Below, piece by piece: positions 1-33,392 of a stretch of 38,370 bases of DNA (positions within the stretch are counted from its first letter, which is position 1; each line of letters opens with the position of its first letter). Under the pieces are notes generated by a model, which searched no databases, had not been told where the DNA came from, and was given only the letters and a program-made list of their open reading frames with translations. This DNA comes from Desulfatirhabdium butyrativorans (GTDB lineage Bacteria; Desulfobacterota; Desulfobacteria; Desulfobacterales; JAIFKL01): contig DZCT01000002.1 of NCBI GenBank assembly GCA_022736535.1, positions 1 through 38,370 on the forward strand, written 5' to 3'. A program made the translations under genes and the position numbers.

Positions 1-1
1 A

Positions 2-4612: not shown

Positions 4613-4614
4613 GC

Positions 4615-6480: not shown

Positions 6481-6490
6481 GAAACCTTAT

Positions 6491-6504
6491 TTCTCACTTC
6501 TCAC
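6491..6504 (+). repeat. Tandem heptamer TTCTCAC x2
   Basis: TTCTCACTTCTCAC lies in the asnB-NRPS2 spacer. Its reverse complement GTGAGAA is close to the AGTGAGG run at 38291. Confidence 0.6.
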
Positions 6505-6522
6505 TTGTAAGGGGAAAATACA

Positions 6523-12500: not shown

Positions 12501-12978
12501 TTATCAGATCAAATTCGTGAAGGAATCGCTGAGGAAAATTCCCAACAAAGGCATGGGTTACAATACCTTGAAATATCTCACTGCTGCGGAGAATAAGAAA
12601 GGTGTCTCTTTTAATATCCGTCCCGAGGTCAGTTTTAACTACATGGGGCAGTTTGACGAAGATGTAGGCGTCGGTTTTGACTTGGCTTCAGAGTCATCCG
12701 GCAATAACCTGAATCCGAACTCGGAATGCCTCTATGACATTGATGTGAACTGTATTGTGATTCAGGGTAAGTTGCAGGTATCTCTCACATATAACGGGAA
12801 ACGCTATGTAGCAGAGACCATTGAAAAACTGGGAAGAGATTTCAAGGATGAACTTCTGGTGATAACAGCGCATTGCGCCGGTATCGAGGACACTGAAATC
12901 ACTCCGAGTGATATTGATTATGATGGTTTTGATATTGATGAATTAGATGCAGTTTTAGGAAGTCTGCAACAGAATTAG
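6523..12978 (+). CDS. Non-ribosomal peptide synthetase, two modules: A-T-C-A-T-E
   Basis: First A: [16 protein letters not shown] (~7030-7077), [49 protein letters not shown]: GGNSL (Ser 8245-8247). C: [27 protein letters not shown] (HH at 8803-8808). Second A: [16 protein letters not shown] (10228-10275), [49 protein letters not shown]: GGDSI (Ser 11425-11427). E: [10 protein letters not shown] (from 11962), EGHGRE, RTVGWFT, FNYMGQ. Acidic C-terminal tail [22 protein letters not shown]. Confidence 0.96.
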   Translation: [2151 protein letters not shown]

Positions 12979-13050: not shown

Positions 13051-13650
13051 ATGATTGAGGAAAAAGTGATAACAACGGGTACGAATTCAGCTATCGGAGC
13101 CGGAAGTGCAAATACCGCCGCTGCTACTACTGCTGTACCGGCTGTTGCCGCCAAAACCGCCGCAGTTACAGCGGCTCCGACCGCTGCTACAGCCGCACCG
13201 GTTGCCGCTGCCAAGACTGCCGCTGCTGCTTCGGCGATGCCCGCAGCCGCGACTATGGCAGCGCCGGCGGCTACTGCTGCCAAAACCGCCGCTGTCACAG
13301 CCGCACCGAGTGCTGTACCGGTTGCCGGAGCCGCTAAAACTGCCGTAGCGATGCCCGCAGCTATGAGTTCGGCAATGCCGGCTGCAACTGCTGCCAAAAC
13401 TGTCGCTGCTACAGGTGCAGGCGCATCATCTGCTGTACCCGCTGCCGGAGCAGCTAAAGTTTCTGCCGGAACCGGACTTGCAAAAACCGCCCCTATTGCA
13501 AAAGCACTCGGAGCAAAAACACTCGGAGCCTTGGCATTTGTGCCGCTTCCCGTATTAGGCGTTTTATCGTTGGCAGGTATTATCGGTGTTGAATTTTGGA
13601 TGGGCAAAAGAGACAGCAAACCGAAATCAACGCCCAAAAAGAAAAAATAA
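13051..13650 (+). CDS. Alanine-rich repeat protein (199 aa) with a C-terminal hydrophobic helix and a polybasic tail; function unknown
   Basis: GAGGGAGAG Shine-Dalgarno-like run 6-14 nt upstream of ATG 13051, with an in-frame stop at 13027. About six ~20-aa units each contain one AAK(T/V) (Lys at residues 35, 55, 78, 96, 116, 136). The C-terminus is FVPLPVLGVLSLAGIIGVEFWMG followed by KRDSKPKSTPKKKK. Repeat units 13150-13185 and 13279-13314 differ by four synonymous third-position changes (gca/gct, gtt/gtc, gcg/gcc, gct/gca) and one non-synonymous codon. That pattern fits selection on this frame. Confidence 0.6.
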   Translation: MIEEKVITTGTNSAIGAGSANTAAATTAVPAVAAKTAAVTAAPTAATAAPVAAAKTAAAASAMPAAATMAAPAATAAKTAAVTAAPSAVPVAGAAKTAVAMPAAMSSAMPAATAAKTVAATGAGASSAVPAAGAAKVSAGTGLAKTAPIAKALGAKTLGALAFVPLPVLGVLSLAGIIGVEFWMGKRDSKPKSTPKKKK

Positions 13651-13727: not shown

Positions 13728-14768
13728 ATGAAGGTACGGTTGAACGGCGTTGAAGTTCGCTCGATAGCGGTTGTGCTGGGGGAGGAGGAATTTAATCTTG
13801 CCGAGCTTTATGATATTTATGAAAAAGATGAAGTCAATCGAATTATAAAAACAAACGGGATTTCAAAAATTCGGATTGCGCCGGAGGGCGTCTGCGCCTC
13901 TGATCTGTGCGAAAAAGCAGCCCGTCAGATATTGACAGACGATGAGACAAAGCGGATCGGCGCTGTCGTGTTTGTCTCTCAGACGCCGGACTATGTTTTA
14001 CCGGCAACCGGCGCATCCCTTCAGCATCGTTTGGGAATCTCGCAAGATACCGCGGCGTTTGACATCAATCACGGATGTTCCGGCTATGTTTACGGGCTGT
14101 ATCAGGCGTCTCTGTTAGTGGCTTCGGGAAGCTGCGATTCGGTGCTGGTCTGTGCGGGCGATACTCTCACACGCTATGTCAATCCGCTCGACAAGTCAAA
14201 TCGCACGGTGTTCGGCGATGCAGGCAGCGCAACACTTGTAGGAAAAGGAGACAGCGATATAGCTTTCAGCATCATGACGGACGGCTCCGGAGCGGAGCAT
14301 CTGATAATTCCTGCGGGCGGGTGCCGTTATCCGAAAGATGAGAACTCGGAAACGGTCTCCGTGAGAAAAGACGGAAATATGCGCTCGGATGAAGACCTTT
14401 TTATGAACGGGCTGGAAGTCATGAATTTCTCTCTTCGGGAAGTTCCTAAAACCGTGGAAGCCGTTCTCTCATGCAAGGGATGGGACAAGTCGGAAGTCAC
14501 ACTTTTCGGATTTCATCAGGCAAATAAATTCATGCTTGACTACCTGAGAAAAACGCTCAAAGTTCCGAAAGAAAGCCTTCCGATTGCAATGGGAGAAACC
14601 GGAAATACAAGTGCGGCGTCCATACCGACGATGCTTACACAGGAAGGCAAACGTCTCTCAGAAGAAAACAGACTGCAAAAAACGGTTCTGTGCGGATTCG
14701 GAGCAGGTTTGTCCTGCGCCGCCGCAGCCTTAGACCTTTCCAGGACAAAGATATTGGAAACGCTTTAA
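13728..14768 (+). CDS. 3-oxoacyl-ACP synthase III (KASIII / FabH-like condensing enzyme)
   Basis: 346 aa. Cys-His-Asn triad motifs: NHGCSGYVYG (Cys codon 14076-14078), GFHQANKFML, GETGNTSAASIP. GFGAGLS near the C-terminus. Confidence 0.9.
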   Translation: MKVRLNGVEVRSIAVVLGEEEFNLAELYDIYEKDEVNRIIKTNGISKIRIAPEGVCASDLCEKAARQILTDDETKRIGAVVFVSQTPDYVLPATGASLQHRLGISQDTAAFDINHGCSGYVYGLYQASLLVASGSCDSVLVCAGDTLTRYVNPLDKSNRTVFGDAGSATLVGKGDSDIAFSIMTDGSGAEHLIIPAGGCRYPKDENSETVSVRKDGNMRSDEDLFMNGLEVMNFSLREVPKTVEAVLSCKGWDKSEVTLFGFHQANKFMLDYLRKTLKVPKESLPIAMGETGNTSAASIPTMLTQEGKRLSEENRLQKTVLCGFGAGLSCAAAALDLSRTKILETL

Positions 14769-15577: not shown

Positions 15578-15698
15578 TGTTTTGCCACGAATGAACACAA
15601 ATTTTTTACGAACAAAAAACACGAATTTTATTAAAAGTATAAATCTGTTAAATAGTAAACGATTGTCAAATCTTAAACTCAGGAGAAAAACAATTCCC

Positions 15699-15995
15699 GT
15701 GTATGAAAGAATTATTGATATAGTCATTCAGCAGGCAAAAGAACTGAACGAGGAATTGGCGAACAAAATTCCGCTCGAACAGGGCGCGGATGCGCCGCTG
15801 TTCGGGAAAGACGGCGTTCTGGATTCCATCGCGTTGGTGACGCTGATAGTTGCGGTCGAACAGGCAGTCGAAGATGAATTTGACACAGCCCTGACCATTG
15901 CCGACGAAAAAGCCATGTCGCAGAAAATCAGTCCTTTCAGAACTGTCGGCAGTTTAGCCGAGTATATTCAAAAGCTGGTCAAAGGAGAGATTTAA
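15699..15995 (+). CDS. Free-standing acyl carrier protein
   Basis: GVLDSIALVTLIVAVEQ carries the DS(I/L) phosphopantetheine-attachment motif (Ser codon 15825-15827). I chose the GTG start at 15699 with AGGAG at 15681-15685, giving 98 aa. The ORF-track start at 15582 would add an Asn/Lys-rich extension encoded by AT-rich spacer. Confidence 0.75.
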   Translation: MYERIIDIVIQQAKELNEELANKIPLEQGADAPLFGKDGVLDSIALVTLIVAVEQAVEDEFDTALTIADEKAMSQKISPFRTVGSLAEYIQKLVKGEI

Positions 15996-16694
15996 GTGGA
16001 AACGCCGATAACGCTGATTACAGGCGCAAGCAAAGGAATCGGAAAGTTTCTTGCACAATATTATCTCAGACAGGGGCATCGTGTGATCGGTTGCAGCCGT
16101 TCAGATACAGATTGGAAAGCAGAAGGATATGAACATCATCTCGCAGATGTGAGCCATGAAACTGATGTAAAAAAACTTTTTTCTGATATTCGCAGAAAAT
16201 ACGGAAAATTGGATCATCTCATCAACAACGCGGGCATTGCTTCCATGAATCACTTTATGCTCACGCCCCTGGCAGCGGCGCATAAAATTTTTGACACGAA
16301 TTTTATGGGAACTTTTCTTTTCTCCCGGGAAGCGGCAAAGCTGATGAAAAAGCAGCAATACGGAAGAATCGTAAACTTTTCCACCGTAGCCGTTCCCTTA
16401 AAACTTGAAGGAGAAGCCATCTACGCGGCGTCGAAAGCCGCGGTTATCTCTTTTACACAAGTTATAGCGAGAGAATTGGCAGACTTCGGGATAACCGTGA
16501 ATGCCGTGGGTCCCGCGCCTGTTCAGACGGATCTGATAGCCGCTGTTCCGAAAGATAAAATTCAGAATTTATTGGACAGACAGGCGATTCACAAGTTTGC
16601 CGAGTTTGAAGATGTCGCCAATGTGATTGACTTTTTTATCAGAAAAGAGAGTGCGTTTATCACGGGACAGGTTCTGTTTCTCGGAGGTATTTGA
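15996..16694 (+). CDS. Short-chain dehydrogenase/reductase (FabG-like ketoreductase)
   Basis: The GTG start abuts the ACP stop. Motifs: ITGASKGIGKFLA (TGxxxGxG), NNAG, YAASKAA (YxxxK), PAPVQTD. 232 aa. Confidence 0.9.
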   Translation: METPITLITGASKGIGKFLAQYYLRQGHRVIGCSRSDTDWKAEGYEHHLADVSHETDVKKLFSDIRRKYGKLDHLINNAGIASMNHFMLTPLAAAHKIFDTNFMGTFLFSREAAKLMKKQQYGRIVNFSTVAVPLKLEGEAIYAASKAAVISFTQVIARELADFGITVNAVGPAPVQTDLIAAVPKDKIQNLLDRQAIHKFAEFEDVANVIDFFIRKESAFITGQVLFLGGI

Positions 16695-18040
16695 TGTTTA
16701 CAGATTTTTTGTCAGAGATATTCTCAGATAACAAAGAAAAAGATGCGCTCGTCTGGCAGGACAGAAAATACTTATACGAATATCTGCTGAACGCCTTTCA
16801 AGACTGGCAAAAAAACCTTGATGAAAGCGGGATTGCAAAGAATTCTGTCGTATTGCTGGAAGCGGATTTTTCGCCCAATGCGCTGGCGTTGATGCTTGCG
16901 CTGATAGAACATGAGTGTATTGTCGTACCGTTTACGACTTCGGTAAAAGCGAAAAAAGCGGAATTTTGCGAGATTGCTCAGGCTGAACATATTGTCAGTA
17001 TTGACGAAAACGACATAGTTTCTTTTGAAAGAATATCTCGTGAGGCGGACCATGACTTGCTGAGACAACTGAAAATGAGGAGACATCCGGGGCTGATCCT
17101 TTTTTCTTCAGGTTCCACAGGAAAGAGCAAAGCCGCGCTGCATGATTTTGCGCCCCTGCTGGAAAAATTCAAACTTCGCCGCCATGCCATGCGAACCCTC
17201 ACGTTTCTGCTGTTTGACCATATCGGCGGCGTCAACACATTGCTGCATATTTTATCTAATGCGGGCTGCGCTGTCACGGTTCAGGAGCGTTCACCGGAAA
17301 GCGTCTGCAAGGCGATTGAAACGCACAAAGTTCAGCTTTTGCCGACTTCTCCGACTTTTATCTCCCTGCTCCTGCTCAGTGAGGCATATCGCAACTATGA
17401 TATGACTTCCCTTGAATTAGTGACTTACGGCACGGAAGTCATGCCGGAAAGCACGCTGAAAAAGTTTCACGAATGCTTTCCGAATGTCCGATTACTCCAA
17501 ACCTACGGGCTTTCGGAAATCGGCATCATGCGCTCGAAATCCGAGTCATCGGATTCTTTGTGGATGAAAATCGGAGGCGAAGGCATTCAAACCCGCATTG
17601 CTGACGGGATTCTTCAGATTAAAACGCCTTCCGCCATGCTGGGTTATCTCAACGCGCCGAGTCCTTTCACCCCGGACGGCTGGTTTGACACAGGAGACAA
17701 AGTAGAGACAAACGGCGATTATATTCGCATACTCGGCAGAGAATCGGAGATCATCAATGTGGGCGGAGAAAAGGTCTGGCCCGCTGAAATAGAAGAAGTC
17801 ATTCAGATGATGCCGGGCGTGGAAGATGTGGCGGTCTGCGGTGTGAAAAGTCCGATTACCGGTCAGATGGTTCAGGCGAGCGTGAAACTCAAAACTGACG
17901 AGACGCTTTCGGATTTTCGGAAAAGAATGCGGAACTTCTGCAAAGACAAACTCTCTGCTTTCAAGGTTCCGCAAAAAGTGATGCTGACCGATCACGCTTT
18001 TCACGGGGGACGGTTTAAGAAATTGAGAATTAAGCAGTAA
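16694..18040 (+). CDS. Stand-alone adenylate-forming enzyme (acyl-AMP / acyl-ACP ligase family)
   Basis: ATG 16694 overlaps the SDR stop (ATGA), with GGAGG at 16681-16685. Motifs: LILFSSGSTGKSKA, TYGLSE, FDTGDKVE, GRESEIINVGGEKVWPAEIEE. At 448 aa it is shorter than typical acyl-CoA synthetases. Confidence 0.88.
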   Translation: MFTDFLSEIFSDNKEKDALVWQDRKYLYEYLLNAFQDWQKNLDESGIAKNSVVLLEADFSPNALALMLALIEHECIVVPFTTSVKAKKAEFCEIAQAEHIVSIDENDIVSFERISREADHDLLRQLKMRRHPGLILFSSGSTGKSKAALHDFAPLLEKFKLRRHAMRTLTFLLFDHIGGVNTLLHILSNAGCAVTVQERSPESVCKAIETHKVQLLPTSPTFISLLLLSEAYRNYDMTSLELVTYGTEVMPESTLKKFHECFPNVRLLQTYGLSEIGIMRSKSESSDSLWMKIGGEGIQTRIADGILQIKTPSAMLGYLNAPSPFTPDGWFDTGDKVETNGDYIRILGRESEIINVGGEKVWPAEIEEVIQMMPGVEDVAVCGVKSPITGQMVQASVKLKTDETLSDFRKRMRNFCKDKLSAFKVPQKVMLTDHAFHGGRFKKLRIKQ

Positions 18041-18077
18041 TACAGAACAAGTTGGAGGATCGAGGCGGTTCTCTGAA

Positions 18078-18107
18078 ACTGTCATTCTGAGCGAAGCGAA
18101 GAATCTC
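18078..18107 (+). repeat. Solo copy of the CTGTCATTCTGAG..GAAGAATCTC unit
   Basis: ACTGTCATTCTGAGCGAAGCGAAGAATCTC lies in the spacer between the ligase gene and NRPS3. It is near-identical to 35665-35694. Confidence 0.85.
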
Positions 18108-18132
18108 ATTCCGCTATGCAGGGAGCATAAGT

Positions 18133-21100
18133 ATGTTTGCCAAAAAAAATGTAAAGAATATCTGCGCATTGACGCCGCTTCAGGAAGGCATTCTTTTTCA
18201 TGCGCTGTACAGCAAGGAAAATGCAACTTATTTTGAACAATTCAACTATCATATCTCCGGAAAGACAGATATTCCGCTGTTTGAAGCCGCCTGGAATGAA
18301 CTGATGCGGCGGCATGATATTTTCAGAACCGTGTTTGTGCATAAAAATGTGCCCCAGCCCTTACAGATTGTTCTCAAAGAACGCAAGATTGACTTTACTT
18401 TTGAAGACATCCGCAGTCTCAGCCCGGAAGCGCAGCGGGACCGCTGGCTCGTTTACAGAGAAAAAGATAAGAAAAGATATTTTGACCTGAGCAAAGATGC
18501 GCTGATGCGGGTGGCGGTGTTTCAACTGGCTGAAAATTCATTCAATATAACATGGAGCTTTCATCACATCGTCATGGACGGCTGGAGCGTGGGCATTGTT
18601 TATGACGAGCTGATTACTCTTTATCATTCCATGAGAAACGGAAACACAACGACACTGCCGGCGCCCGTGTCTTTCGGCGAGTATGTGAAATGGCTGAAAA
18701 AACAGGATACCGAAGCTGCAAAAGACTACTGGCGGAAATATTTGGCAGACTACCGCCGCCTGACCGGTTTGCCTCGTATTCTCGGAGAAAAGAAAAAAGA
18801 ATTTGTCAAAAAGACTTTTGAGTTCAAACTTTCTGAAACCATGTCTCAAGGATTGCGGGATACGGCTGCCCGGCATCATGTGACCGTCAACACGGTGATT
18901 CAGGTGATCTGGGGTATTCTTTTGGGGAAATACAACGATGCGACAGATGCGGTCTTTGCCGCAACCGTTTCGGGCAGACCTGCTGATCTCAAAGGTGTTG
19001 AGCGCATTGTCGGACTTTTTATCAATGCGATTCCGGTCCGCATTCAGATGAGACAGGGACAGACGACAGAAGCTTTGCTGCAAAAGACGCATCATGACGC
19101 TGCGGAAAACAAAGACTACCATTATTACTCGCTGGCAGACATTCAGTCAGAGACGCTTCTCAAACAGCGCCTTCTGGATCATCTTCTGATATTTGAAAGT
19201 TATCCGGATTTGGGGAAGTCGGAAGGACGCGGGGAGACCGAGTTTGTCATTGACGAGTTTGAACAGTTTGAACTCACCAACTATGATCTTTCCGTACAGG
19301 TTTTTCCGGAAGAGACATTTCATTTCTGTGTTATTTATAACGCTTCGGTTTATGAGCAAAACATAATAGAAAAGATTGAACCGCATCTGAAAACAATTAT
19401 TGAGTCAATTCTGAAAGATGCAGAAGTCGAACCGTCACAAATTGCGCTGCTTTCACCTGATGAGCAGGAGACATATCGGAAAGCTGCAAATGAGATAAAT
19501 GAGTCATTGCTGAAACTGCCTGTGCAGAGAGACGGAGCAAGAAGTTTGTCGGCAGTTTATGCAGAGCCGGAAAACGAGGCGCAGGAAAAATTGGTCTCGA
19601 TATGGAAAGAAGTCATGAATGTCGGGACCCTCGGCATTGATGACAACTTTTTTGAACTGGGCGGACACAGCCTGATGGCAACCCGGATTGTCTCCCGCAT
19701 CCATAAGATATTTGAAGTCGAAATCACCTTGCAGGAATTTTTTGACCGTCCGAATGTGAGGAAATTAAGCGAAGTCATTTCCCGGCACGCTGCCGCCGCG
19801 TATTCGGAGATTGAAGTCATTCCCGAACAGGAAGACTACGAAGTCTCCCATTCTCAGCGCAGACTCTGGATTTTAGACCGGATGGAAGAAAATTTCATTG
19901 CTTATAATCAGTCTGCGGGTTTTCTTTTTAAAGGAGATATGGACATTCCCGCGTTAAAACGTGCAGTTCGCTCGGTCTGCCGGCGGCATGAATCCCTGAG
20001 AACCGTCTTTGTTATGAAAGACGGAACGCCGAGACAGAAAATTCAGGCAGCCTCGCAAGTTGAGATTACAGAAACTGACTTGAGCCGTGCGGAGAATAAA
20101 GAAGATATAGCAAAAAATTATGCAAGGAAAGAGGCAACGCTTCCTTTTGATTTGGAAAAGGGACCCCTGTTGAGAGTCAGCATCCTGCGGCTTACAGATG
20201 ACTCCCGTTTATTGCTCATAAATATTCATCATATTATCTGCGACGGCTGGTCGGTTGTGCTTTTTGAAAATGAGATATTGACGCTGTATAAATCCTTTAC
20301 AGAAGGGCATGAAGCGGATTTATCTCCTTTGAAAATACAGTACAAAGACTACTCGGCATGGCATAACCGGCTTTTGGAAAGCGAGAATATCCGGGCGCAT
20401 CAGGCATACTGGCATCAGAAATTATCCGGCGAACTGCCGGTACTGAATCTCCCGACAGATTACCCGCGTCCCGCTACACTGAGCTATAAGGGAAACACCG
20501 TAACGCATGTTCTGAACGCCGAACTTTCCGCATCTCTTGATCAATTTTGCAGAGAAAAGCAAGTCAGTCTTTTTATGACTCTGCTCGCGGGCGCAAAAGT
20601 GCTGCTGCACCGCTATACGGGACAGAACGACATCATCATCGGTTCGCCGATTGCCGGCAGAATTCACCCGGATTTGGAACATCAGATCGGTTTCTTTGTG
20701 AACACGCTTGCCCTGAGAGATACGGTTCTCGGCGATGAAAGTTTTATGACGCTGCTGTCAAAGGTGAAGCAGACCACGCTTGAGGCATACCAGCATCAGG
20801 TTTACCCTTTTGACAAGCTGGTAGAAGAACTTGATGTTCAGCGGGACATCAGCCGCTCGCCGATTTTTGACGTGATGCTCGTTTTGCAGAATACCGACGA
20901 GATAAAAACTGATCTGCCGAATGTGGAGATAAAGCCTTTTGCTTATGAAACCGGCGTGAGTCAGTTTGATCTCACGCTGATTTTCACGCAGGATGAGGGA
21001 AAACTCCGGCTCGACATGAACTGCAACACCGATCTGTTTGCAAATGAGACAATCCTGCGGATGGGAAGGCATTTCGAGGAAGTGCTGAAAAGCATTCTGT

Positions 21101-24100
21101 CAGCGCCGGAGCATCAGATTCGGAACATAAACCTGTTGAGCGCGGCAGAGAAACAGCAGATTCTCTTTGACTTTAACAACACCAAAGCCCCGTATCCCGA
21201 AGACAAGACATTGGCTGATCTCTTTGAAGAACAAGTCATCAGGACGCCGGACAATATCGCGGTCATTTTTGAGGAAAAGCAGATGACTTACAGGGAACTG
21301 AATGACGCGGCAGACCGGCTCGCGCATGATCTCAGAGACAAGTATCAGATTCAGCCTGATGATCTGGTTGCTGTGATGATGAAGCGTAGCGAACAGCTCA
21401 TTGTCTCATTGCTGGGAATTTTGAAAGCAGGCGGCGCGTATCTGCCCATAGACCCCGCCTATCCTCAGAAAAGAATTGACTACATGCTCAACGACAGCGC
21501 ATGTAAGGTTTGCATAGGGGTACGGGGTACGGGGTTAGAGGTTCGGGGGGCGGGGGCCGCCCCTCGCACCTCTAACCTCAAACCTCAAACCTCGAACCTC
21601 GCCTACGTCATCTACACCTCCGGTTCTACCGGACAGCCCAAAGGCGTTATGATTGAACACCGCGGGTTTGTAAACATGACGCTGGATCAGATCAGAGGCT
21701 TCGGCGTGTCGGAATCGGATCGGGTGTTGCAGTTTTCTTCTCCTTCTTTTGACGCGTCATTGTCTGAGATATTCATGGCATTGCTCAAAGGCGCGGCATT
21801 GGTCATGATTTCGACAGACACGATTAATGACTCACATCGTTTTCTCGAATATATTGAGAGACATAAGGTAAGCGTGATTACCTTTCCGCCGGTCTATCTG
21901 AATATGCTCAACAAACATCCGCTGCCCACGGTCAGAACCATTATCACCGCGGGCGAACCCGCCATTCTCGGCGATGTGCTGTTTTACTGCAAAGACAGAC
22001 AGTATTTCAACGCCTACGGGCCTACGGAAACATCGGTCTGCACCTCATATTACAGAGTGCCGCCTGATTTCCGTGCGCCCTATTCCGGGTTCCGCATTCC
22101 CATCGGCGCGCCCATCGCCAATTCCTCTGTTTTTATTGTGGATGAGTCAATACAGCCCGTGCCGGTAGGCGTGACGGGAGAAATCTGTTTTTCGGGCGTG
22201 GGACTTGCCAGGGGGTATCTCAACAAGCCGGAACTGACCGCAGAGAAATTTGTCGAAAATCCTTTTCACCCCGGAACCCGGCTGTACAAAATCGGCGATC
22301 TGGGAAAATGGCTTCCGGACGGCAATATTGTTTTTCTCGGGAGAAAAGACGATCAGGTAAAAGTCAGAGGCTTCCGCATCGAACTGGGAGAAATCGAAAG
22401 CCGCCTGAAACAGCATCCGCAAATAACAGACGCATTGGTTCTGGCTGTGGGGGAAAACGAAAACTCAAGGCAATTAGTCGCATATCTCATTACGCATTCG
22501 GAAATAAATCTGGGAGAAATGAGAAATTTTCTGGGCGAAAGTCTTCCGCCTTTTATGATGCCGAATCATTTTGTGAGTCTTGAAAAATTCCCGCTCACCG
22601 TAAACGGAAAAATTGACAAGCGGGCTTTGCCCGGCGTTTCATCGGATTTGTCTCACGGACCGGATGATATGCCGCCCCGGAACGAGACAGAAGCAACACT
22701 TCTGAATGTCTGGAAAAAACTGTTTCAGAAAGAGAAAATCGGCATTTATGATGACTTCTTCGCGCTCGGCGGCGATTCCGTCAAAGCCATTCAGACCGTA
22801 TCGCTGCTGCATGAGCAAAACCTGAAGGTCAGAGCCAAAGATATTTTTCAATACCCCACAGTTGCACAGTTGGCTAAAGCCGCTGTTTTGTCCGGGCGCG
22901 GTCTTGCAGCAAATCAGGAGATGATTTCCGGCTATGTGCCGCTGACCCCGATTACCGCATGGTTTTTTAAAGAATTTACGGTTGACAGACATCACTTCAA
23001 CCATTCCGACCTGTTCTGTGTCAGAGAAAGGCTTGACGAAGACGCGCTGCGCGCCGCGTTTGCAAAGATACAGGAACACCATGACGCGCTGAGAATGCGC
23101 TGCCGCTTTGAAAACGGAAACTGGAAATTGGAAATTGCGGGAGACAATTATCCCCTGCATTTTGAAGTAACAGATTTGCGAAACTCGGAACAGGCGGTTT
23201 CGGAACTGGAATCCCACGCACAGCAGCTTCAGTCAAGCCTGAATTTGAAGAAAGGTCCTCTGATGAAAGCGGTTTTGTTCCGAATGCCTCATCCGGAGTG
23301 TCAAAATGAAATTTTGACAAGCACAGACCGGCTGCTGATTATCGTGCATCATCTCGTGATTGACGGCGTTTCATGGCGTTTTTTTCTGGAAGACCTTTTG
23401 CGGGGATATGAGCAGTATTTATCAAATAAGACCGTTACCCTGCCCCCGAAAAGCGATTCTTTCAAAGAATGGGCGGAAGGGATTCAGACATACAGCAGCA
23501 GCGATGAACTGCTCGGAGAAAAAGAATATTGGCGGCAGTTGGAAGCAACGCCGACCGGAGAACTGCCATGGGATGATGATTCCTCCCCCTCAGACACGGA
23601 TGAGGCGCGGATGAAGCATACCTTCACAGCCGATTTTAACTTGTCTCAGGCGGAAACCGAAATGCTTCTGACCTGTAGAGACGCAACATTTTGTGTCTCT
23701 GACGCGGCGAGAACCGATGAACTGCTGCTCACCGCACTGGCATGGGCGCTGAAACAATGGCACGGACATGACAGAACGCTGATTCATCTTGAAGGACACG
23801 GACGGGAAGATATTGTCAGGGGGACCGATGTCAGCCGGACCGTCGGCTGGTTCACGGCGGTTTATCCGGTGATCTTAGATTCGCCGGACGCATCTGATGC
23901 GGTGCAGATCGGGACAATTAAAGGCATTCTGCGAAATATTCCCAACCGGGGCATGGGATACGGGATTCTGAAATATGTGACGCCCTCGGCATATAAACAG
24001 GAATTGAAGTTCAATTTAAAGCCCCGCATCAGTTTCAACTATCTGGGTGAAATGGAGGCTTACGGAACCGGCATTTTTGAAAGGGCAACCGAATCCTGCG

Positions 24101-24288
24101 GCAATGCGGTCAGCCCGGACGCAAAGCTTATCCATGATATAGACATCAATGCGGTCATCATTGAAAAAAAACTGCATATTGACCTGACGGCAAACGGCTT
24201 GAAGTGCCGCCCCGAGCGCATTGAAAAAATTTTATCGGATTTTAAAAATAAATTGAAAGAAATAATTGCAAAGTGTGAAAAAATATGA
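18133..24288 (+). CDS. Non-ribosomal peptide synthetase: C-T (no A domain) followed by C-A-T-E; no release domain
   Basis: C1: LTPLQEGILFH, RHDIFRTVF, HHIVMDGW (from 18562). T: FFELGGHSL (Ser 19669-19671). C2: SHSQRRLWILD, RHESLRTVF, HHIICDGW (from 20227). A: LAYVIYTSGSTGQPKG (from 21598), NAYGPTETS, YKIGDLGKW, GRKDDQVKVRGFRIELGEIE, NGKIDKRALP. T: GGDSV (Ser 22777-22779). E: HHLVIDGVSW (from 23347), EGHGRE, RTVGWFT, FNYLGE. The protein ends ..IIAKCEKI with no thioesterase or reductase motif. Confidence 0.95.
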   Translation: MFAKKNVKNICALTPLQEGILFHALYSKENATYFEQFNYHISGKTDIPLFEAAWNELMRRHDIFRTVFVHKNVPQPLQIVLKERKIDFTFEDIRSLSPEAQRDRWLVYREKDKKRYFDLSKDALMRVAVFQLAENSFNITWSFHHIVMDGWSVGIVYDELITLYHSMRNGNTTTLPAPVSFGEYVKWLKKQDTEAAKDYWRKYLADYRRLTGLPRILGEKKKEFVKKTFEFKLSETMSQGLRDTAARHHVTVNTVIQVIWGILLGKYNDATDAVFAATVSGRPADLKGVERIVGLFINAIPVRIQMRQGQTTEALLQKTHHDAAENKDYHYYSLADIQSETLLKQRLLDHLLIFESYPDLGKSEGRGETEFVIDEFEQFELTNYDLSVQVFPEETFHFCVIYNASVYEQNIIEKIEPHLKTIIESILKDAEVEPSQIALLSPDEQETYRKAANEINESLLKLPVQRDGARSLSAVYAEPENEAQEKLVSIWKEVMNVGTLGIDDNFFELGGHSLMATRIVSRIHKIFEVEITLQEFFDRPNVRKLSEVISRHAAAAYSEIEVIPEQEDYEVSHSQRRLWILDRMEENFIAYNQSAGFLFKGDMDIPALKRAVRSVCRRHESLRTVFVMKDGTPRQKIQAASQVEITETDLSRAENKEDIAKNYARKEATLPFDLEKGPLLRVSILRLTDDSRLLLINIHHIICDGWSVVLFENEILTLYKSFTEGHEADLSPLKIQYKDYSAWHNRLLESENIRAHQAYWHQKLSGELPVLNLPTDYPRPATLSYKGNTVTHVLNAELSASLDQFCREKQVSLFMTLLAGAKVLLHRYTGQNDIIIGSPIAGRIHPDLEHQIGFFVNTLALRDTVLGDESFMTLLSKVKQTTLEAYQHQVYPFDKLVEELDVQRDISRSPIFDVMLVLQNTDEIKTDLPNVEIKPFAYETGVSQFDLTLIFTQDEGKLRLDMNCNTDLFANETILRMGRHFEEVLKSILSAPEHQIRNINLLSAAEKQQILFDFNNTKAPYPEDKTLADLFEEQVIRTPDNIAVIFEEKQMTYRELNDAADRLAHDLRDKYQIQPDDLVAVMMKRSEQLIVSLLGILKAGGAYLPIDPAYPQKRIDYMLNDSACKVCIGVRGTGLEVRGAGAAPRTSNLKPQTSNLAYVIYTSGSTGQPKGVMIEHRGFVNMTLDQIRGFGVSESDRVLQFSSPSFDASLSEIFMALLKGAALVMISTDTINDSHRFLEYIERHKVSVITFPPVYLNMLNKHPLPTVRTIITAGEPAILGDVLFYCKDRQYFNAYGPTETSVCTSYYRVPPDFRAPYSGFRIPIGAPIANSSVFIVDESIQPVPVGVTGEICFSGVGLARGYLNKPELTAEKFVENPFHPGTRLYKIGDLGKWLPDGNIVFLGRKDDQVKVRGFRIELGEIESRLKQHPQITDALVLAVGENENSRQLVAYLITHSEINLGEMRNFLGESLPPFMMPNHFVSLEKFPLTVNGKIDKRALPGVSSDLSHGPDDMPPRNETEATLLNVWKKLFQKEKIGIYDDFFALGGDSVKAIQTVSLLHEQNLKVRAKDIFQYPTVAQLAKAAVLSGRGLAANQEMISGYVPLTPITAWFFKEFTVDRHHFNHSDLFCVRERLDEDALRAAFAKIQEHHDALRMRCRFENGNWKLEIAGDNYPLHFEVTDLRNSEQAVSELESHAQQLQSSLNLKKGPLMKAVLFRMPHPECQNEILTSTDRLLIIVHHLVIDGVSWRFFLEDLLRGYEQYLSNKTVTLPPKSDSFKEWAEGIQTYSSSDELLGEKEYWRQLEATPTGELPWDDDSSPSDTDEARMKHTFTADFNLSQAETEMLLTCRDATFCVSDAARTDELLLTALAWALKQWHGHDRTLIHLEGHGREDIVRGTDVSRTVGWFTAVYPVILDSPDASDAVQIGTIKGILRNIPNRGMGYGILKYVTPSAYKQELKFNLKPRISFNYLGEMEAYGTGIFERATESCGNAVSPDAKLIHDIDINAVIIEKKLHIDLTANGLKCRPERIEKILSDFKNKLKEIIAKCEKI
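19570..19783 (+). other. Carrier (T) domain of an adenylation-less C-T module inside NRPS3
   Basis: ENEAQEKLVSIWKEVMNVGTLGIDDNFFELGGHSLMATRIVSRIHKIFEVEITLQEFF follows the first C domain after a short linker. No A-domain core motif lies between them. Domain boundaries are approximate. Confidence 0.8.
21517..21600 (+). repeat. Palindromic heptamer-repeat element, intragenic and in frame (A domain of NRPS3)
   Basis: Twelve contiguous 7-mers. G-rich arm: GGGGTAC GGGGTAC GGGGTTA GAGGTTC GGGGGGC GGGGGCC. C-rich arm: GCCCCTC GCACCTC TAACCTC AAACCTC AAACCTC GAACCTC. GGTTAGAGGT (21533-21542) and ACCTCTAACC (21568-21577) are exact reverse complements. 84 nt = 28 codons, translated GVRGTGLEVRGAGAAPRTSNLKPQTSNL. 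Confidence 0.9.
23292..23323 (+). repeat. Small palindromic element, family 2, intragenic and in frame (E domain of NRPS3)
   Basis: TCCGGAGTGTCAAAATGAAATTTTGACAAGCA. Perfect 9-bp stem TGTCAAAAT / ATTTTGACA with loop GAA. It encodes part of HPECQNEILTS, 10 residues absent from the two sister E domains. Confidence 0.85.
23676..23701 (+). repeat. Small palindromic element, family 3, intragenic and in frame (E domain of NRPS3)
   Basis: TAGAGACGCAACATTTTGTGTCTCTG matches the intergenic palindrome at 33258-33283 at 23 of 26 positions. The stem keeps a G-U wobble on the + strand RNA. It encodes CRDATFCVSD in place of the (K/N)VNHAY(N/H)T motif of the sister E domains. Confidence 0.8.
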
Positions 24289-24291
24289 TAC

Positions 24292-24322
24292 TTGACAATC
24301 CATTTATTTCATGCCATATAAA
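24292..24322 (+). promoter_or_regulatory. Candidate sigma70-type promoter for the downstream export/hydrolase genes
   Basis: TTGACA at 24292-24297. TATAAA at 24317-24322 gives a 19-nt spacer, or CATATA at 24315-24320 gives a 17-nt spacer. It lies 4 nt after the NRPS3 stop and ~215 nt upstream of ATG 24538. Pattern match only. Confidence 0.3.
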
Positions 24323-24404
24323 AATAAAGTTTTTATATATTTCCCGTTTCAATGTTCTGCGTCCTCTGTTTCGGACTGTTCCATGCCGTGACGCACGCAG
24401 CCGT

Positions 24405-24482
24405 AAAGCGAGTTTGAAACTCGCTTTGCAATGCAGAGCGGGGTTGTCAAATCTTGCGCAGGGTAAGCACGGGGGCTTACCC
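24405..24482 (+). other. Two stable hairpins in the 250-nt spacer upstream of 24538
   Basis: AAAGCGAGTTT g AAACTCGCTTT (24405-24427) and GGGTAAGC acgggg GCTTACCC (24461-24482). Neither is followed by a T-run. Confidence 0.5.
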
Positions 24483-24537
24483 TTACGAACAGTGTTGATT
24501 AAAGAAAATTTCAAAAAAAGATCAGGAGGAAGAAAAG

Positions 24538-25479
24538 ATGAAAAGGGTGGTGAAATGTGTCTTTTGTCTGTGGGTAATTTCTTTGCTCATAAATGCCCCG
24601 CTGGCCGCTTTTGCAGAGCAGGAATCAGCTCAGGCATCTGTAGAAGGCGACGCCGAGAAACAGAAAAAGGACCTGGGGGAATGGTGGAACAGGAATCCGC
24701 TGACATACAGTCCGGTCCCGGATGAATTTCTCTATCATCTGGAAGCGACTTATGACTGGAGCCGGCAGACCGGCAATTTTACCAATGACAAGCATGACCT
24801 CAGCGCGCTGCTGACGCTGAGAAAAAACATTTTTACCTATAACGTCCGATATGCGTTGGACAAGCGGAATGCGTCCAGACCGTATCCGCCGCCGTATCAG
24901 GACGACAACAAAGACCTTCGGAAAAGCACCCGGCATGAAATCCACAATGATTTCAGGATGGCACTCACAGACCGCATCATTGCATCCGTGGGCATGTTCT
25001 GGCTCAAAGACGACTACATCAAAATCGAGAACCGTTCTACCTATTACGGCGGGCTGGGCTATACTGTGTTCAGACATCCGAGACTGAAAATAGATATCTT
25101 CGGCGCTTATGCTTATGAAGAACAGGATCATACCGACGAGTACCATGAGGATTATCTGAAAATGCAGGACTGGGGGCAGACCGCCGGTGCGAACTATGAC
25201 AGCGGAACCGAAATGTACAGTCTGCTTTATCTTTATCAGTCAGCCAGATGTTATGTGACCCGCTCTCTGGTATTGAATGAAAGCATTCATTATTTTCTGA
25301 ATCCGGATGACAGCGACAAGTACCGCTGGAAATTCAATGTGAGCGCGGACATCAAAATCATAGAACATATTTTTGCCACTCTCAGTTACGATGAGACTTA
25401 TGACAATTCGCCTGAATCCATAATGGGAATCCGCAAAAGAGATTCTTCCATCGGCGCAGGTGTAAAAATAAGTTTTTGA
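24538..25479 (+). CDS. Secreted protein, probable outer-membrane beta-barrel
   Basis: AGGAGG sits 8 nt upstream. Signal peptide MKRVVKCVFCLWVISLLINAPLAAFA|EQ. The body has alternating hydrophobic/polar, Tyr/Asp/Asn-rich strands. The C-terminus GAGVKISF ends in Phe, as in many OM barrels. Family assignment (possibly DUF481/YdiY-like) is uncertain. Confidence 0.6.
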   Translation: MKRVVKCVFCLWVISLLINAPLAAFAEQESAQASVEGDAEKQKKDLGEWWNRNPLTYSPVPDEFLYHLEATYDWSRQTGNFTNDKHDLSALLTLRKNIFTYNVRYALDKRNASRPYPPPYQDDNKDLRKSTRHEIHNDFRMALTDRIIASVGMFWLKDDYIKIENRSTYYGGLGYTVFRHPRLKIDIFGAYAYEEQDHTDEYHEDYLKMQDWGQTAGANYDSGTEMYSLLYLYQSARCYVTRSLVLNESIHYFLNPDDSDKYRWKFNVSADIKIIEHIFATLSYDETYDNSPESIMGIRKRDSSIGAGVKISF

Positions 25480-25490
25480 GAAGTGAGCAA

Positions 25491-25560
25491 CAGGTTCGAG
25501 GTTTGGGGTTCGAGGTTCGAGGACTTCTCCCGCACCCGCACTCCGTACCCCGTACCCCAT
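25491..25560 (+). repeat. Palindromic heptamer-repeat element, intergenic copy
   Basis: CAGGTTC GAGGTTT GGGGTTC GAGGTTC GAGGACT | TCTCCCG CACCCGC ACTCCGT ACCCCGT ACCCCAT. The right arm ACCCCGTACCCC is the reverse complement of the GGGGTACGGGGT seen at 21517. It lies between the stop at 25479 and the start at 25575. Confidence 0.9.
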
Positions 25561-25574
25561 CTGGGAGAAAAAAA

Positions 25575-27371
25575 ATGAGGAAAAAACAAAATACGGTGTT
25601 TGACAAAGCATTCCGTCTTTGTACGGCAATCCTGATGCTGATGTTCTCCGCTTTCGGATGCGGCGGCGAACATGAAGATTATGTCTCTGAGAGAGAAGGA
25701 CGCTTTATAGACAGCGCCGTGCAGGGACTGTCCTATATTTCCGGCAGTCGTACCGACATAACCGATGAAAACGGGACTTTCTTTTATGAAAAAGGCAAAG
25801 ATGTCACATTCAGGCTCGGAAACATTGTACTCGGGTCTGCGACAACTGTTCTGGAATTAGATATAAAAACACAGGAACTTGCGCCGGACATACTGACGCT
25901 GACCCCCAGAGATCTGGTTTCCGCAGCGGAAAGCGACAGAGACCCGCAGGTGACAAATATTCTGCGCTTTTTGCAGACATTGGATGATGATGCGAATCCG
26001 GATAACGGCATTATGCTGTCAGAATCTGTGAGACAAAAAGCAGAAAAATACAGTACGGAAGTTGACTTCTCATTAAGCACAGACAAATTTGAAGAAAAAA
26101 TACAGACTGTCGTAAATGATCTGCTGGGCAAAGAGCGGGAACTGATTTCCGCGGTCAGGGCGCAGAATCATTTTATTCGGACCAAATTGCAGGAGATATT
26201 GGACAAAGCGGTTTCAGAAAACGAGGTTCCCGGCGTGGCACTCGTTGCGGAAGTTCCCTGCGAGGGAGAAGACTGTGCAGACGGCGCGATGGACGGCGTG
26301 ACTTATTCGGACGGAAAATTTACATGGAAGCTGACAAGCGGTTATTCCAATCTGGAAACCCAAACGCCCATGACCGCCGATACCCGATTCCGGGTTGCCA
26401 GTCTGACCAAAACATTTGTGGCAATGACCGTCATGCAAATGGTCGAGGAAGGAAAGATAACTCTCGACGATTCCATAGAACAGTGGTTTCCCGGACTGAT
26501 TCCCAACGGTGAAAACATCAATATCCGTCAGGTGGTGAATCACTCCAGCGGGCTTTATAATTTCTATGAAGTGCCTTCCGACTGGTTTTTTGATTTCCTG
26601 TTTCTCCGTCAGGATAAATGGGATCCGCTTGATCTCATTGAACTTGCGGTTGAAGAAGGACCGACATTTGCTCCCGGCACAGACTGGCATTATTCAAACA
26701 CAAATTATGTCCTGCTGGGAATGCTCATAGAGAAAGTGACCGGCAACAAGTGGGAAGATGAGATACGAAATCGTTTTATCAATAAATACGGACTGTCCGA
26801 CACCATTGTACCGGAAACCGGGGAGTCAAATCTTGAAGGTCCTTATGTTCAGAATCCGACAGAAGGAAAATACGCCCACGGCTACATTGACCTGTATGAT
26901 GTGACCGGCGCCATGTACGGAAGTAAAAACAAAGGCTTGGAAGACGCTTCGACTCGGGAACCGTCTGCTGCGAGTTCATCGGCATGTATGATTTCCTCGC
27001 CTGAAAATCTGTGCTTATGGATCAGACTCATCGGCGAAGGCAGGCTGTTCGGTGAAGGCTATGATTTTGTCAATGACACCGGCGTTGATCCTGAACTTTA
27101 TTTTCCGATGAATGAGGCAACGGATTGCGGTCCCAATATCTACAAAAATCTCGCAAACAACATGCTGATTGCTTCGGGTAATTTTCTGGGTTACGATGTG
27201 GGTATTGTCTATGATCCGAATCATGGGATACCGATTGCCACATGCGCCAACAGGACATTGAGGTCTGAAGACGGTCAGATAAAAGATATTGTCATTTTTG
27301 ACGCGATTGAGATTCTGGGCGCCGGACTGCCGACGGCTGAAAAAAGGTCGGCGGATTCTGAAGAAATTTGA
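25575..27371 (+). CDS. Secreted (possibly lipoprotein) serine hydrolase of the beta-lactamase / S12 D-peptidase fold, with a ~230-aa N-terminal domain of unknown function
   Basis: I chose the ATG at 25575 (GGGAGA 8 nt upstream); the ORF-track start 25476 would translate the heptamer repeat. N-terminus MRKKQNTVFDKAFRLCTAILMLMFSAFGCGG has a signal peptide with a Cys at a lipobox-like position. SxxK: ASLTKTF (26400-26411). YxN: YSNTNY (from 26691). HG in KYAHGYID. Confidence 0.85.
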   Translation: MRKKQNTVFDKAFRLCTAILMLMFSAFGCGGEHEDYVSEREGRFIDSAVQGLSYISGSRTDITDENGTFFYEKGKDVTFRLGNIVLGSATTVLELDIKTQELAPDILTLTPRDLVSAAESDRDPQVTNILRFLQTLDDDANPDNGIMLSESVRQKAEKYSTEVDFSLSTDKFEEKIQTVVNDLLGKERELISAVRAQNHFIRTKLQEILDKAVSENEVPGVALVAEVPCEGEDCADGAMDGVTYSDGKFTWKLTSGYSNLETQTPMTADTRFRVASLTKTFVAMTVMQMVEEGKITLDDSIEQWFPGLIPNGENINIRQVVNHSSGLYNFYEVPSDWFFDFLFLRQDKWDPLDLIELAVEEGPTFAPGTDWHYSNTNYVLLGMLIEKVTGNKWEDEIRNRFINKYGLSDTIVPETGESNLEGPYVQNPTEGKYAHGYIDLYDVTGAMYGSKNKGLEDASTREPSAASSSACMISSPENLCLWIRLIGEGRLFGEGYDFVNDTGVDPELYFPMNEATDCGPNIYKNLANNMLIASGNFLGYDVGIVYDPNHGIPIATCANRTLRSEDGQIKDIVIFDAIEILGAGLPTAEKRSADSEEI

Positions 27372-27374
27372 AAA

Positions 27375-27444
27375 AAGGTTAGGGGTTAGGGGTTCGAGGT
27401 TCGGGGTCAGAGGTCGCACCCCGAACCTCGCACCCCGAACCCCA
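27375..27444 (+). repeat. Palindromic heptamer-repeat element, intergenic copy (strong hairpin)
   Basis: AAGGTTA GGGGTTA GGGGTTC GAGGTTC GGGGTCA GAGGTCG | CACCCCG AACCTCG CACCCCG AACCCCA. CGAGGTTCGGGGT (27395-27407) pairs perfectly with ACCCCGAACCTCG (27418-27430). It lies between the stop at 27371 and the start at 27451. Confidence 0.9.
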
Positions 27445-27450
27445 TAAAAT

Positions 27451-33221: not shown

Positions 33222-33230
33222 CTTTTAATT

Positions 33231-33290
33231 TCTCGCAAAGGCGCAAAGGTCGCAAAGCAGAGACGCAAAATTTTGCGTCTCTGCGTCTCC
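33231..33290 (+). repeat. Composite intergenic repeat: three CGCAAAG direct repeats plus a 26-bp perfect palindrome (family 3)
   Basis: CGCAAAG at 33234, 33242 and 33251. CAGAGACGCAAAA|TTTTGCGTCTCTG at 33258-33283 is a perfect palindrome. A related TGCAAAGGGCGCAAAG lies at 33367-33382. Confidence 0.85.
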
Positions 33291-33392
33291 TCCTGTTTAC
33301 CCAAAAAATCCTTTGAGCTCTCTGCGCCGAGGCTGAGAACAGATGCGAGAAACCTTTATTATTTCTTGCAAAGGGCGCAAAGATTCTGAACT

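Follow-up and report, generated by a model that had tools for sequence, protein, structure and literature searches.

Architecture of the NRPS3 head

The Desulfatirhabdium butyrativorans assembly GCA_022736535.1 carries a biosynthetic cluster at positions 1–38,370 of contig DZCT01000002.1 (forward strand), and this stretch of 38,370 nt, referred to below as the window, has all its large genes on the plus strand and within that one cluster. A literature search on the source organism returned nothing. Three genes for nonribosomal peptide synthetases (NRPS1, NRPS2 and NRPS3) lie in the window, and the present analysis concerns the head of NRPS3, in which a condensation domain (C1) runs into a carrier domain (T1) through a short linker, with neither adenylation (A) domain nor FkbH sequence between the two. 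An earlier note on this DNA, made from the sequence alone, had singled out this C-T pair as a module without an A domain. The features discussed here are collected in Table 1.

Table 1. Positions of the synthetase genes, the domains of NRPS3 and the accompanying genes in the window (A, adenylation; C, condensation; E, epimerization; T, carrier domain)
Feature	Position (nt)	Strand	Characteristics
C1 of NRPS3	18133–19452	+	aa 1–440; D-donor type; COM-type N-terminus MFAKKNVKNICALTPLQEG; HHIVMDGW at aa 144, nt 18562
C1-T1 linker	19453–19584	+	44 aa; no A-domain and no FkbH sequence
T1 of NRPS3	19585–19782	+	Peptidyl carrier protein (PCP)-type carrier, about aa 485–550; GGHSL, Ser513 codon 19669–19671
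C2 of NRPS3	19828–21165	+	L-donor type; Pfam best stretch aa 566–1011; HHIICDGW; takes the chain from T1
A domain of NRPS3	21223–22611	+	The sole A domain; Pfam AMP-binding and AMP-binding_C, aa 1031–1493; code DASTIAAVCK by alignment
T2 and terminal E domain of NRPS3	22690–24285	+	Pfam; T2 motif GGDSV; motifs HHLVIDGVSW, EGHGRE, FNYLG
NRPS3	18133–24288	+	C1-T1-C2-A-T2-E; 2051-aa product of 18133–24285
NRPS1, 3' part	1–4612	+	Visible domains A-T-E-C; final C domain with acidic tail; gene cut by the left window edge
AsnB-like amidotransferase	4615–6480	+	Pfam, NCBIfam; between the terminal C of NRPS1 and the N-terminal A of NRPS2
NRPS2	6523–12978	+	A1-T-C-A2-T-E and COM-type donor tail ..TPSDIDYDGFDIDELDAVL.. 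(Pfam, sequence)
Ala-rich, low-complexity membrane open reading frame	13051–13650	+	199 aa; C-terminal hydrophobic segment and Lys-rich end
FabH-like ketoacyl synthase III (KSIII)	13728–14768	+	Cys-His-Asn triad (GCSG, FHQAN, GNTSAAS); Pfam, NCBIfam; nearest structures FabH-like 3GWA and 4EFI
Free acyl carrier protein (ACP)	15582–15995	+	Last ~100 aa conserved, LDSI Ser; weak NCBIfam ACP matches; start probably later than 15582
Short-chain dehydrogenase/reductase (SDR), FabG-like ketoreductase	15996–16694	+	Pfam adh_short; NCBIfam 3-oxoacyl-ACP reductase; Tyr-x-x-x-Lys kept
Stand-alone ANL ligase	16691–18040	+	Acyl-CoA-synthetase type, 449 aa; directly 5' of NRPS3; Pfam, NCBIfam

Domains were called by Pfam on the NRPS3 product and by a motif scan. 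Pfam returned three Condensation stretches (E = 2.3e-303), two PP-binding stretches, of which T1 is the best (aa 485–548, spanning positions 1–66 of the 67 in the profile), and single matches to AMP-binding (aa 1031–1363) and AMP-binding_C (aa 1420–1493). The A-core motifs likewise occur singly in NRPS3, with one SGSTG (A3) at aa 1163, one NGKID (A10) at aa 1491 and none between C1 and T1. On this point Pfam and the motif scan agree with the earlier note, which had found no A domain in the first module and whose positions for the HHIVMDGW motif of C1 (from 18562) and the serine codon of T1 were exact. The head of NRPS3 is an A-less elongation module, having an HHxxxDG motif, a carrier serine, no loader between them and a downstream C domain. 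The code of the only A domain is one that we take, from published codes, to be Tyr-like.

C1 is 43% identical to the post-E terminal C domain of NRPS1, and its cluster comprises post-E, N-terminal and FkbH-linked C domains. Its N-terminus is typical of C domains that receive the chain from an E-terminated partner, and it faces the COM-type tail of NRPS2, which, from its sequence, should dock on C1. C2 has its sister in the tree in the internal C domain of NRPS2 (47% identity), in accordance with the L-donor type assigned to it by the earlier note, and T1 is 56% identical to the T domain that follows A1 of NRPS2, as against 32–38% for other T domains. Because the module is without a loader but intact, and an L-donor-type C2 comes next, the predicted route is that T1 must be loaded in trans and its unit passed on. 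The earlier note had argued for the same need, which is borne out by the intact catalytic His motif, Ser513, the L-donor C2 and the purifying selection described below. Within the internal C domain of NRPS2, HHIISDA replaces HHxxxDG (window 8803–8832, NRPS2 aa 761).

Integrity and conservation of the module

Logan contigs, which are assembled separately for each metagenome run, were available from four public runs and cover positions 18081–19865 and 19239–20385 with 0 differences, no joints and flat depth. The loss of an A domain by collapse in assembly, a concern of the earlier note, is excluded by the agreement of these four read-derived contig sets and six independent assemblies. A C-T-C-A-T-E protein with a short linker was found in at least five Desulfobacterales loci besides the window. 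The same domain order is present in a second D. butyrativorans metagenome-assembled genome (MAG; L001, C1 88% identical), in Desulfobacteraceae IS3 (L118, proteins P0001/P0002, 85%), in a Desulfobacterales MAG (L002, 70%), in a JGI metagenome contig (L032, 56%) and in a Desulfamplus MAG (L123, 43%), and T1 is 91%, 77% and 59% identical in L001, L002 and L123, respectively. The HHxxxDG motif of C1 is kept in P0001–P0003, P0007, P0015 and L123, the carrier motif of T1 is kept in all orthologues, and the catalytic His/Asp and carrier Ser are present in every copy.

Values of dN/dS, calculated by the Nei-Gojobori method across the window, L001 and L002, were 0.08–0.12 for T1 and 0.11–0.15 for C1, with 0.08–0.22 for the remaining NRPS3 domains; the linker is less constrained, at 0.10–0.31 and 57–73% identity between orthologues. 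Purifying selection on C1 and T1 equals in strength that on the neighbouring domains, and this low dN/dS, together with the retention of the catalytic residues in every copy, makes a skipped or decaying module unlikely. In the Desulfobacterales HSG16 MAG (L115), positions 4880–5500 contain an inversion or a chimeric contig with breakpoints in the ligase (~aa 319) and in the C1-T1 linker, so that T1-C2-A-T-E starts a gene on the strand opposite to the ligase fragment and C1.

Relatives of the module and the cystomanamide line

The relationships of the C domains were examined in a neighbor-joining distance tree with bootstrap. Outside its orthologues, C1 has its nearest relatives in proteins with the same distinctive N-terminus, and in three of them (P0005, P0021 and P0030) what comes after the C domain is FkbH-like instead of an A domain. 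In the tree, P0005 (C-FkbH) and P0007 form the sister group of the C-T clade (bootstrap 95) at 60%, and the next proteins out are P0015, P0030 and P0021 (the latter two C-FkbH), at 20–29% support, followed by protein-terminal C domains with an acidic tail. In one C-FkbH locus (L117), the upstream protein ends in an E domain and a COM tail and is followed by C-FkbH-...-T with a GGHSL motif, a junction like that of NRPS2 and NRPS3. In NRPS modules, FkbH domains replace A domains and place a glyceryl group on the T domain, and in vioprolide glycerate is joined to a fatty acid by an ester-forming C domain (PMC8949500). A tblastn search with three FkbH regions as queries found no FkbH-like sequence in the window, stand-alone or otherwise, and none in seven related loci (best E = 0.77).

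The start of the line lies beyond the left window edge. A contig with an identical AsnB protein (L030) reaches 3.3 kb further, and there NRPS1 is seen to continue upstream with a polyketide synthase (PKS)-type ACP and a class-III aminotransferase-like region, ahead of C-A-T-E-C; the ACP-aminotransferase head is thus present before the first C domain. A PKS-ACP-aminotransferase head is of the type that makes the beta-amino fatty acid in iturin-type lipopeptides. The aminotransferase region is 51–59% identical across many ACP-aminotransferase-C loci. A metagenome scan with the ACP-aminotransferase region returned only relatives of at most 48% identity and no longer contig of this cluster, but brought to light the C|AsnB|A layout described below.

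The module order of the window line, after the PKS-ACP-aminotransferase head, is (C-A-T-E)(C|A-T)(C-A-T-E)(C-T)(C-A-T-E). The cystomanamide line (ctm/cym, Cystobacter fuscus; Etzbach et al. 2014) is given in Table 2 of PMC9581180 as (C-A-PCP-E)(C-C-A-PCP)(C-A-PCP-E)(C-FkbH-PCP)(C-A-PCP-E-TE), where TE is a thioesterase domain, and its product is described in that source as Asn-Asn-Phe-glyceric acid-Tyr on 3-amino-9-methyldecanoic acid. The two lines share a beta-amino fatty acid start, a five-module order with E domains in modules 1, 3 and 5, and a fourth module without an A domain followed by a Tyr-type C-A-T-E module, if our assumption of a Tyr-like code holds here. They differ in that the window line has no FkbH domain in module 4 and no terminal TE, that its module 2 is split over two proteins with an AsnB-like gene between, where cystomanamide has C-C-A-T, that a KSIII-ACP-ketoreductase-ligase cassette is present, and that the predicted amino acids differ. 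In module order, the A-less module thus occupies the place that the C-FkbH-T glycerate module has in cystomanamide-type lines. This parallel, and the fact that the nearest non-orthologous relatives of C1 are C-FkbH proteins, suggest that the missing loader is as likely to have been of the FkbH type as an A domain, and that a hydroxy acid may be expected on T1.

The C1-T1 linker

In its front half ('ALLSPDEQETYRKAANEINE'), the linker can be aligned to the tail at the C-terminus of NRPS1 ('ALVSEAEEQEQTDFLNAAMTIDE') and to the starts of ordinary C-A linkers, and at least equally well to the pre-FkbH segment of P0005 ('VLSEGERKIYRR'). The back half ('..SAVYAEPENEAQEKLVSIWKEV') is the usual lead-in to a T domain, which looks alike behind A and behind FkbH domains. 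A post-C 'LS..E..' segment (here LLSPDEQETY..) is common to C-A linkers, pre-FkbH segments and the tails of terminal C domains, and because it precedes A, precedes FkbH and ends proteins alike, the ancestral loader cannot be read from the linker. In sequence, the linker is compatible with the loss of a loader, without identifying that loader as an A domain. The earlier note had seen in it the two ends of linkers from which an A domain of ~500 aa is missing; this reading is not supported, as the front half is generic, the back half is an ordinary T lead-in and relatives hold an FkbH domain at this place.

Two further ideas were considered and rejected. That the linker is a retained docking site for A1 of NRPS2 finds no support: the NRPS1 tail aligns with it over 'EQE..AA..I.E', but the DEDF motif is absent in NRPS3 and its orthologues. 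A recent duplication that joined the NRPS1 terminal C to NRPS2 minus A1 is not supported either, given domain identities of only 43–56% and a C1 that falls in another subclade than the NRPS1 terminal C; the same two facts make the argument from duplication for A1 as the loader of T1 weak. Searches for T1-C2 homologues returned, beyond the orthologues, generic T-C segments of 37–51% identity, which are uninformative on what precedes T1. Other A-less NRPS fragments were seen in P0123 (T-C-T) and P0129 (C-T-C), which are metagenome and Thermoanaerobaculia proteins from unrelated phyla.

The cassette upstream of NRPS3

Between NRPS2 and NRPS3 lie the genes for KSIII, the free ACP, the SDR ketoreductase and the stand-alone ligase, with a solute-binding protein gene between KSIII and the ACP in the window. 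Homologues of the ACP, 97–103 aa in length, occur between KSIII (where present) and the SDR in L032, L118, L119, L121 and L123. The NCBIfam matches of the ligase are acyl-CoA ligases, all far under the cut-offs; its nearest solved structure is 4-chlorobenzoate-CoA ligase, and its A4 region reads LFDHIGG, not FDxS. Judged by these features, the ligase is not an amino-acid-adenylating enzyme.

The ligase adjoins the C1 homologue directly upstream in L001, L032, L114 and L118. Only a small inserted toxin-antitoxin-type gene pair separates the two in L002 and L123, and a 3' fragment of the ligase is found at this place in L115. Every C-T locus (the window, L001, L002, L032, L118 and L123) has the ligase ahead of C1, with the full KSIII-ACP-SDR-ligase cassette wherever the contig reaches far enough, and a ligase ahead of the C domain is absent from all three C-FkbH loci (L113, L116 and L117). 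The pattern is complementary, with C-T loci having a ligase and no FkbH, and C-FkbH loci lacking the ligase.

Small inserts that look mobile are seen at the borders of the cassette. In L002 (3715–4700) the ligase and NRPS3 are separated by a HEPN-like pair, in L032 (1638–3310) the SDR and the ligase are separated by an AAA_21/DUF4276 pair, and in L123 the cassette has ParE-like and BrnT-like toxin-antitoxin genes on its flanks (4448–5466 and 9368–9848). In the window, a short inverted-repeat element (CTGTCATTCTGAGCGAAGCGAAGAATCT) is located at 18072–18107, between the ligase and NRPS3, and again at 35631–35822. Its words have a depth of 500–6000x in four metagenome runs, far above the 5–20x of the flanking genes, which marks it as highly repeated and similar to a miniature inverted-repeat transposable element.

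The ligase family is large, with ~8000 database proteins at E ≤ 1e-60, many of them ~65% identical. Among family members whose surroundings were examined, ACP-SDR-ligase trios with ligases 51–66% identical were found in L003, L007 and L121, where the neighbouring genes encode glycosyltransferases, sugar aminotransferases, epimerases and LbH acyltransferases. The sequences and neighbourhoods of these trios, which share the ACP-SDR-ligase order and the same cassette family, place the origin of the cassette in polysaccharide (amino-sugar N-acylation) loci. There the acyl-ACP serves an LbH-type N-acyltransferase that modifies a nucleotide sugar, whereas here the ligase is followed by a C-T-headed NRPS. 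A comparable set of ACP, ketosynthase and ketoreductase is the proposed source of the 3,5-dihydroxyhexanoyl N-acyl group in a Flavobacterium O-antigen (PMC6519341). This set, wfpC-F of Flavobacterium psychrophilum, is likened to the cassette by enzyme types only (an ACP, two ketosynthases and a ketoreductase) and not by sequence, and the passage that describes it does not mention a ligase.

In view of the context of the ligase family and of the intact KSIII triad and SDR Tyr-x-x-x-Lys motif, the cassette most plausibly makes a short hydroxyacyl thioester. The unit supplied by the ligase would be a carboxylic or hydroxy acid, probably routed via the cassette, because the enzyme is of the acyl-CoA-synthetase type, belongs to an amino-sugar-acylation family and has its own ACP. 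The earlier note had named the stand-alone ligase as a possible loader of T1, and it is still a serious candidate, but as an acyl-CoA-synthetase-type enzyme it is not one for amino acids, and it keeps its own ACP.

Comparison with other A-less modules

A-less modules have been documented in the syringomycin, capreomycin/viomycin and WS9326A systems and in fungal siderophore synthetases (PMC12400406, PMC7539972, PMC8949500). CmnI and VioI of capreomycin and viomycin (PMC12400406), and SidC/SidD, resemble the NRPS3 head in having an intact carrier and C domain, no A domain, a working line and external loading. The donor A domain is shown for CmnI and proposed for VioI (PMC12400406); here there are candidates only (A1 and A2 of NRPS2 and the A domain of NRPS3). 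Unlike CmnI and VioI, the module described here has FkbH-using evolutionary neighbours and an adjoining carboxylic-acid ligase cassette.

Complementation by stand-alone A-T proteins is known from albicidin, cystobactamid, ramoplanin and enduracidin (PMC8949500). In syringomycin, module 9 of SyrE (C-T-TE) works with SyrB1 (A-T) and SyrC, and the likeness lies in a unit that is prepared on a separate carrier and used by an incomplete module. The hand-over in syringomycin is performed by a SyrC-type transferase. No alpha/beta-hydrolase aminoacyl transferase of this type was found among the window open reading frames, and, unlike SyrB1 and SyrC, the stand-alone enzymes here are an acyl-CoA-type ligase without a T domain, a small ACP, a ketoreductase and a FabH-like KSIII.

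In the C-A-KR-T depsipeptide modules (KR, ketoreductase) of cereulide, valinomycin and cryptophycin, the acid is activated, the ketone is reduced on the carrier and the C domain makes an ester. A ligase and an SDR beside a C-T pair would be the same logic in trans. In those modules, however, the A and KR domains act in cis on alpha-keto acid substrates, whereas the enzymes of the window are free-standing and include a KSIII, which suggests a beta-hydroxy product.

Proposed function of the module and alternative explanations

These observations are best explained if the C-T head of NRPS3 works as an elongation module and either was made without a loading domain of its own or has come to lack one. 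In a lipopeptide line begun on a beta-amino fatty acid, it would be module four. The D-configured peptidyl chain would arrive from the E-terminated NRPS2 across the COM-type junction, while T1 would hold a hydroxyl-bearing unit that is not an amino acid, delivered in trans by the upstream cassette. In the cassette, the ligase would activate a small acid, the ACP carry it, KSIII extend it and the ketoreductase yield the hydroxyl. C1 would then esterify that hydroxyl with the D-Val-terminated chain, and C2 would hand the depsi-chain to the Tyr module. The unit might reach T1 by direct loading from the ligase, by KSIII-mediated transfer from the ACP, or by condensation on T1 itself.

The cluster contains one loader-less carrier and one unit-building cassette without an acceptor, which are adjacent and stand at the hydroxy-acid position of related lines, and we infer from this that T1 is fed by the cassette, with a hydroxy acid as the unit and an ester as the bond. 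We tentatively propose that T1 receives a short hydroxyacyl unit from the cassette and that C1 forms an ester with it, a reading that falls a little short of an even chance. A more elaborate version is doubtful: in it, a cassette resembling a type II fatty acid synthase, recruited from amino-sugar N-acylation loci, replaces the cis FkbH domain and builds a short beta-hydroxyacyl unit for the mid-line PCP-type carrier, a D-donor-type C domain esterifies this to give a lipodepsipeptide of sulfate-reducing bacteria with a mid-chain hydroxy acid, and the downstream beta-lactamase-fold lipoprotein could cleave the ester in maturation.

Several observations count against the assignment of the cassette to T1. 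The ligase keeps an ACP of its own, and T1 is not obviously its carrier. An enzyme for transfer from the ACP to T1 was not identified in the cluster, where KSIII has a normal condensing triad. C2 and T1 resemble domains that handle ordinary amino acids, and the cassette could instead supply a lipid starter to the upstream PKS beyond the window, or an acyl group for tailoring. The tree support that links C1 to C-FkbH domains is weak to moderate (60%, then below 30%), and the cystomanamide comparison is one of published domain order, not of sequences; none of the listed matches bore a Ctm name. Finally, the loci with a ligase and a C-T pair are all orthologous and belong to one bacterial order, so that the gene order they have in common does not count as independent evidence of functional coupling.

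A different explanation, which we consider unlikely, is that an A domain elsewhere in the line charges T1 in trans with an L-amino acid, which the module inserts through a normal peptide bond, while the cassette has another job. A1 of NRPS2 would be the most likely donor, since it and its own C domain already act from separate proteins (the C at the end of NRPS1, the A at the start of NRPS2), and the downstream Tyr A domain a less likely one. The earlier note had proposed the Val and Tyr A domains; loading by an A domain does remain a rival, but the note overlooked A1, a more natural donor than either. Such loading has precedents, in which CmnA-A1 loads the A-less CmnI, VioA-A2 loads VioI and the fungal SidC/SidD behave likewise (PMC12400406), and WS9326A also uses trans A domains (PMC7539972). 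It would be in keeping with the ordinary L-donor type of C2, with a preserved D-L-D-L-D alternation along the line and with the closeness of T1 to the T domain behind A1 and of C2 to the C domain behind that T, although the T1 similarity may instead mirror carrier class (T before C versus T before E). Moreover, C1 is no recent duplicate of the NRPS1 terminal C, being of a different subclade, the docking-tail motif of NRPS1 (..DEDF) is lost in the NRPS3 linker, relatives have FkbH and not A at this position, and the conserved cassette would be left without a role.

Distinctly less probable is a loader of T1 encoded outside the window, such as a stand-alone FkbH or A-T protein, with the cassette priming the upstream PKS or acylating the peptide. 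The PKS part of the line does lie beyond the window edge, the ligase has its own ACP, and stand-alone FAAL and ACP pairs start beta-amino fatty acid lipopeptides such as puwainaphycin (PMC4219810). In L119, moreover, the cassette (ligase 75% identical) has no NRPS gene upstream, on a contig that stops ~370 nt past the ligase with no NRPS start. Set against this, no candidate loader was found in the 38-kb window or the related loci, a KSIII and a ketoreductase would be an odd route to PKS priming, and the cassette lies between NRPS2 and NRPS3 in every full copy.

Module skipping is known elsewhere, as in myxochromide S, and the L115 copy is broken at exactly the C1-T1 linker, but that the C-T pair adds nothing, either as a skipped or decaying module or as an assembly artefact minus its A domain, is very improbable given dN/dS of 0.08–0.15 on C1 and T1, intact catalytic residues, conservation down to 43% identity, the concurring read sets and assemblies, and the lack of any known chemistry by which a C domain could pass a chain to an unloaded T domain.

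The split second module, release and other features

The specificity code of A1 of NRPS2 is DVRHLALLAK, with LgrA as the best PDB match, and that of A2 is DVFWLGGTFK, which is Val-like. In the second module (window 3200–8130), the split falls exactly between C and A, with the C domain of NRPS1 ending in the tail ..AAMTIDEDF, followed by the AsnB-like gene and A1 of NRPS2. The same C|AsnB layout was seen in four otherwise unrelated metagenome clusters (L034, L049, L058 and L059), where AsnB homologues 54–61% identical follow a terminal C domain. An A1-like A domain comes after AsnB in L049, the only one of these loci that reaches that far; L034, L058 and L059 stop close to the AsnB gene. Many protein-terminal C domains in the database have tails of a similar kind ('[ED]F[DG]F'), which suggests a common docking device.

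The Ala-rich open reading frame had no family match. It is found just 5' of KSIII in L001 as well (348–530, 89% identical over the last 60 aa) and in L119 (5296–5658, 43%).

No thioesterase family was found in any window open reading frame, and NRPS3 ends at its E domain without a TE or a docking tail (region considered, 22930–27371). The genes 3' of NRPS3 encode a DUF481 outer-membrane protein, a beta-lactamase-fold protein, a cyclic-peptide-type ABC exporter, an SPFH protein and several periplasmic binding proteins. The beta-lactamase-fold protein also follows NRPS3 in L001 and L123, and it has a lipoprotein-type signal peptide (..FSAFGCGG), which is why it is probably periplasmic and not the releasing enzyme. 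Further downstream, at 30495–38062, are three successive large genes with Peripla_BP_6 domains, the first of them fused to SBP_bac_5.

A palindromic repeat (GGTTCGAGG.../...CCTCGAACC) lies in frame within the coding sequence of the NRPS3 A domain (21509–21600), where it encodes GVRGTGLEVRGAGAAPRTSNLKPQTSNL in the loop between motifs A2 and A3. The other copies in the window are intergenic (25483–25560 and 27367–27446). A related version of the repeat occupies the A2-A3 loop in L001, and L002 has an ordinary loop.

Implications

A-less modules illustrate how an assembly line can draw its building blocks from free-standing enzymes, a principle of direct use in peptide engineering. We have not seen a description in the literature of a D-donor C-T pair at the FkbH position together with a polysaccharide-type cassette, conserved across several Desulfobacterales lineages. 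If the cassette does feed T1, it would represent a third way to set a hydroxy acid in mid-chain, beside the cis A-KR and cis FkbH arrangements, and one that consists of a small, portable set of four genes that is extremely common in cell-surface sugar loci. The structure that the proposal predicts, with an ester between D-Val and the hydroxy acid and with D-Tyr as the next residue, is amenable to a check by mass spectrometry. The cluster as a whole constitutes a conserved, uncharacterised lipopeptide pathway in the Desulfobacterales, a group with few known natural products.

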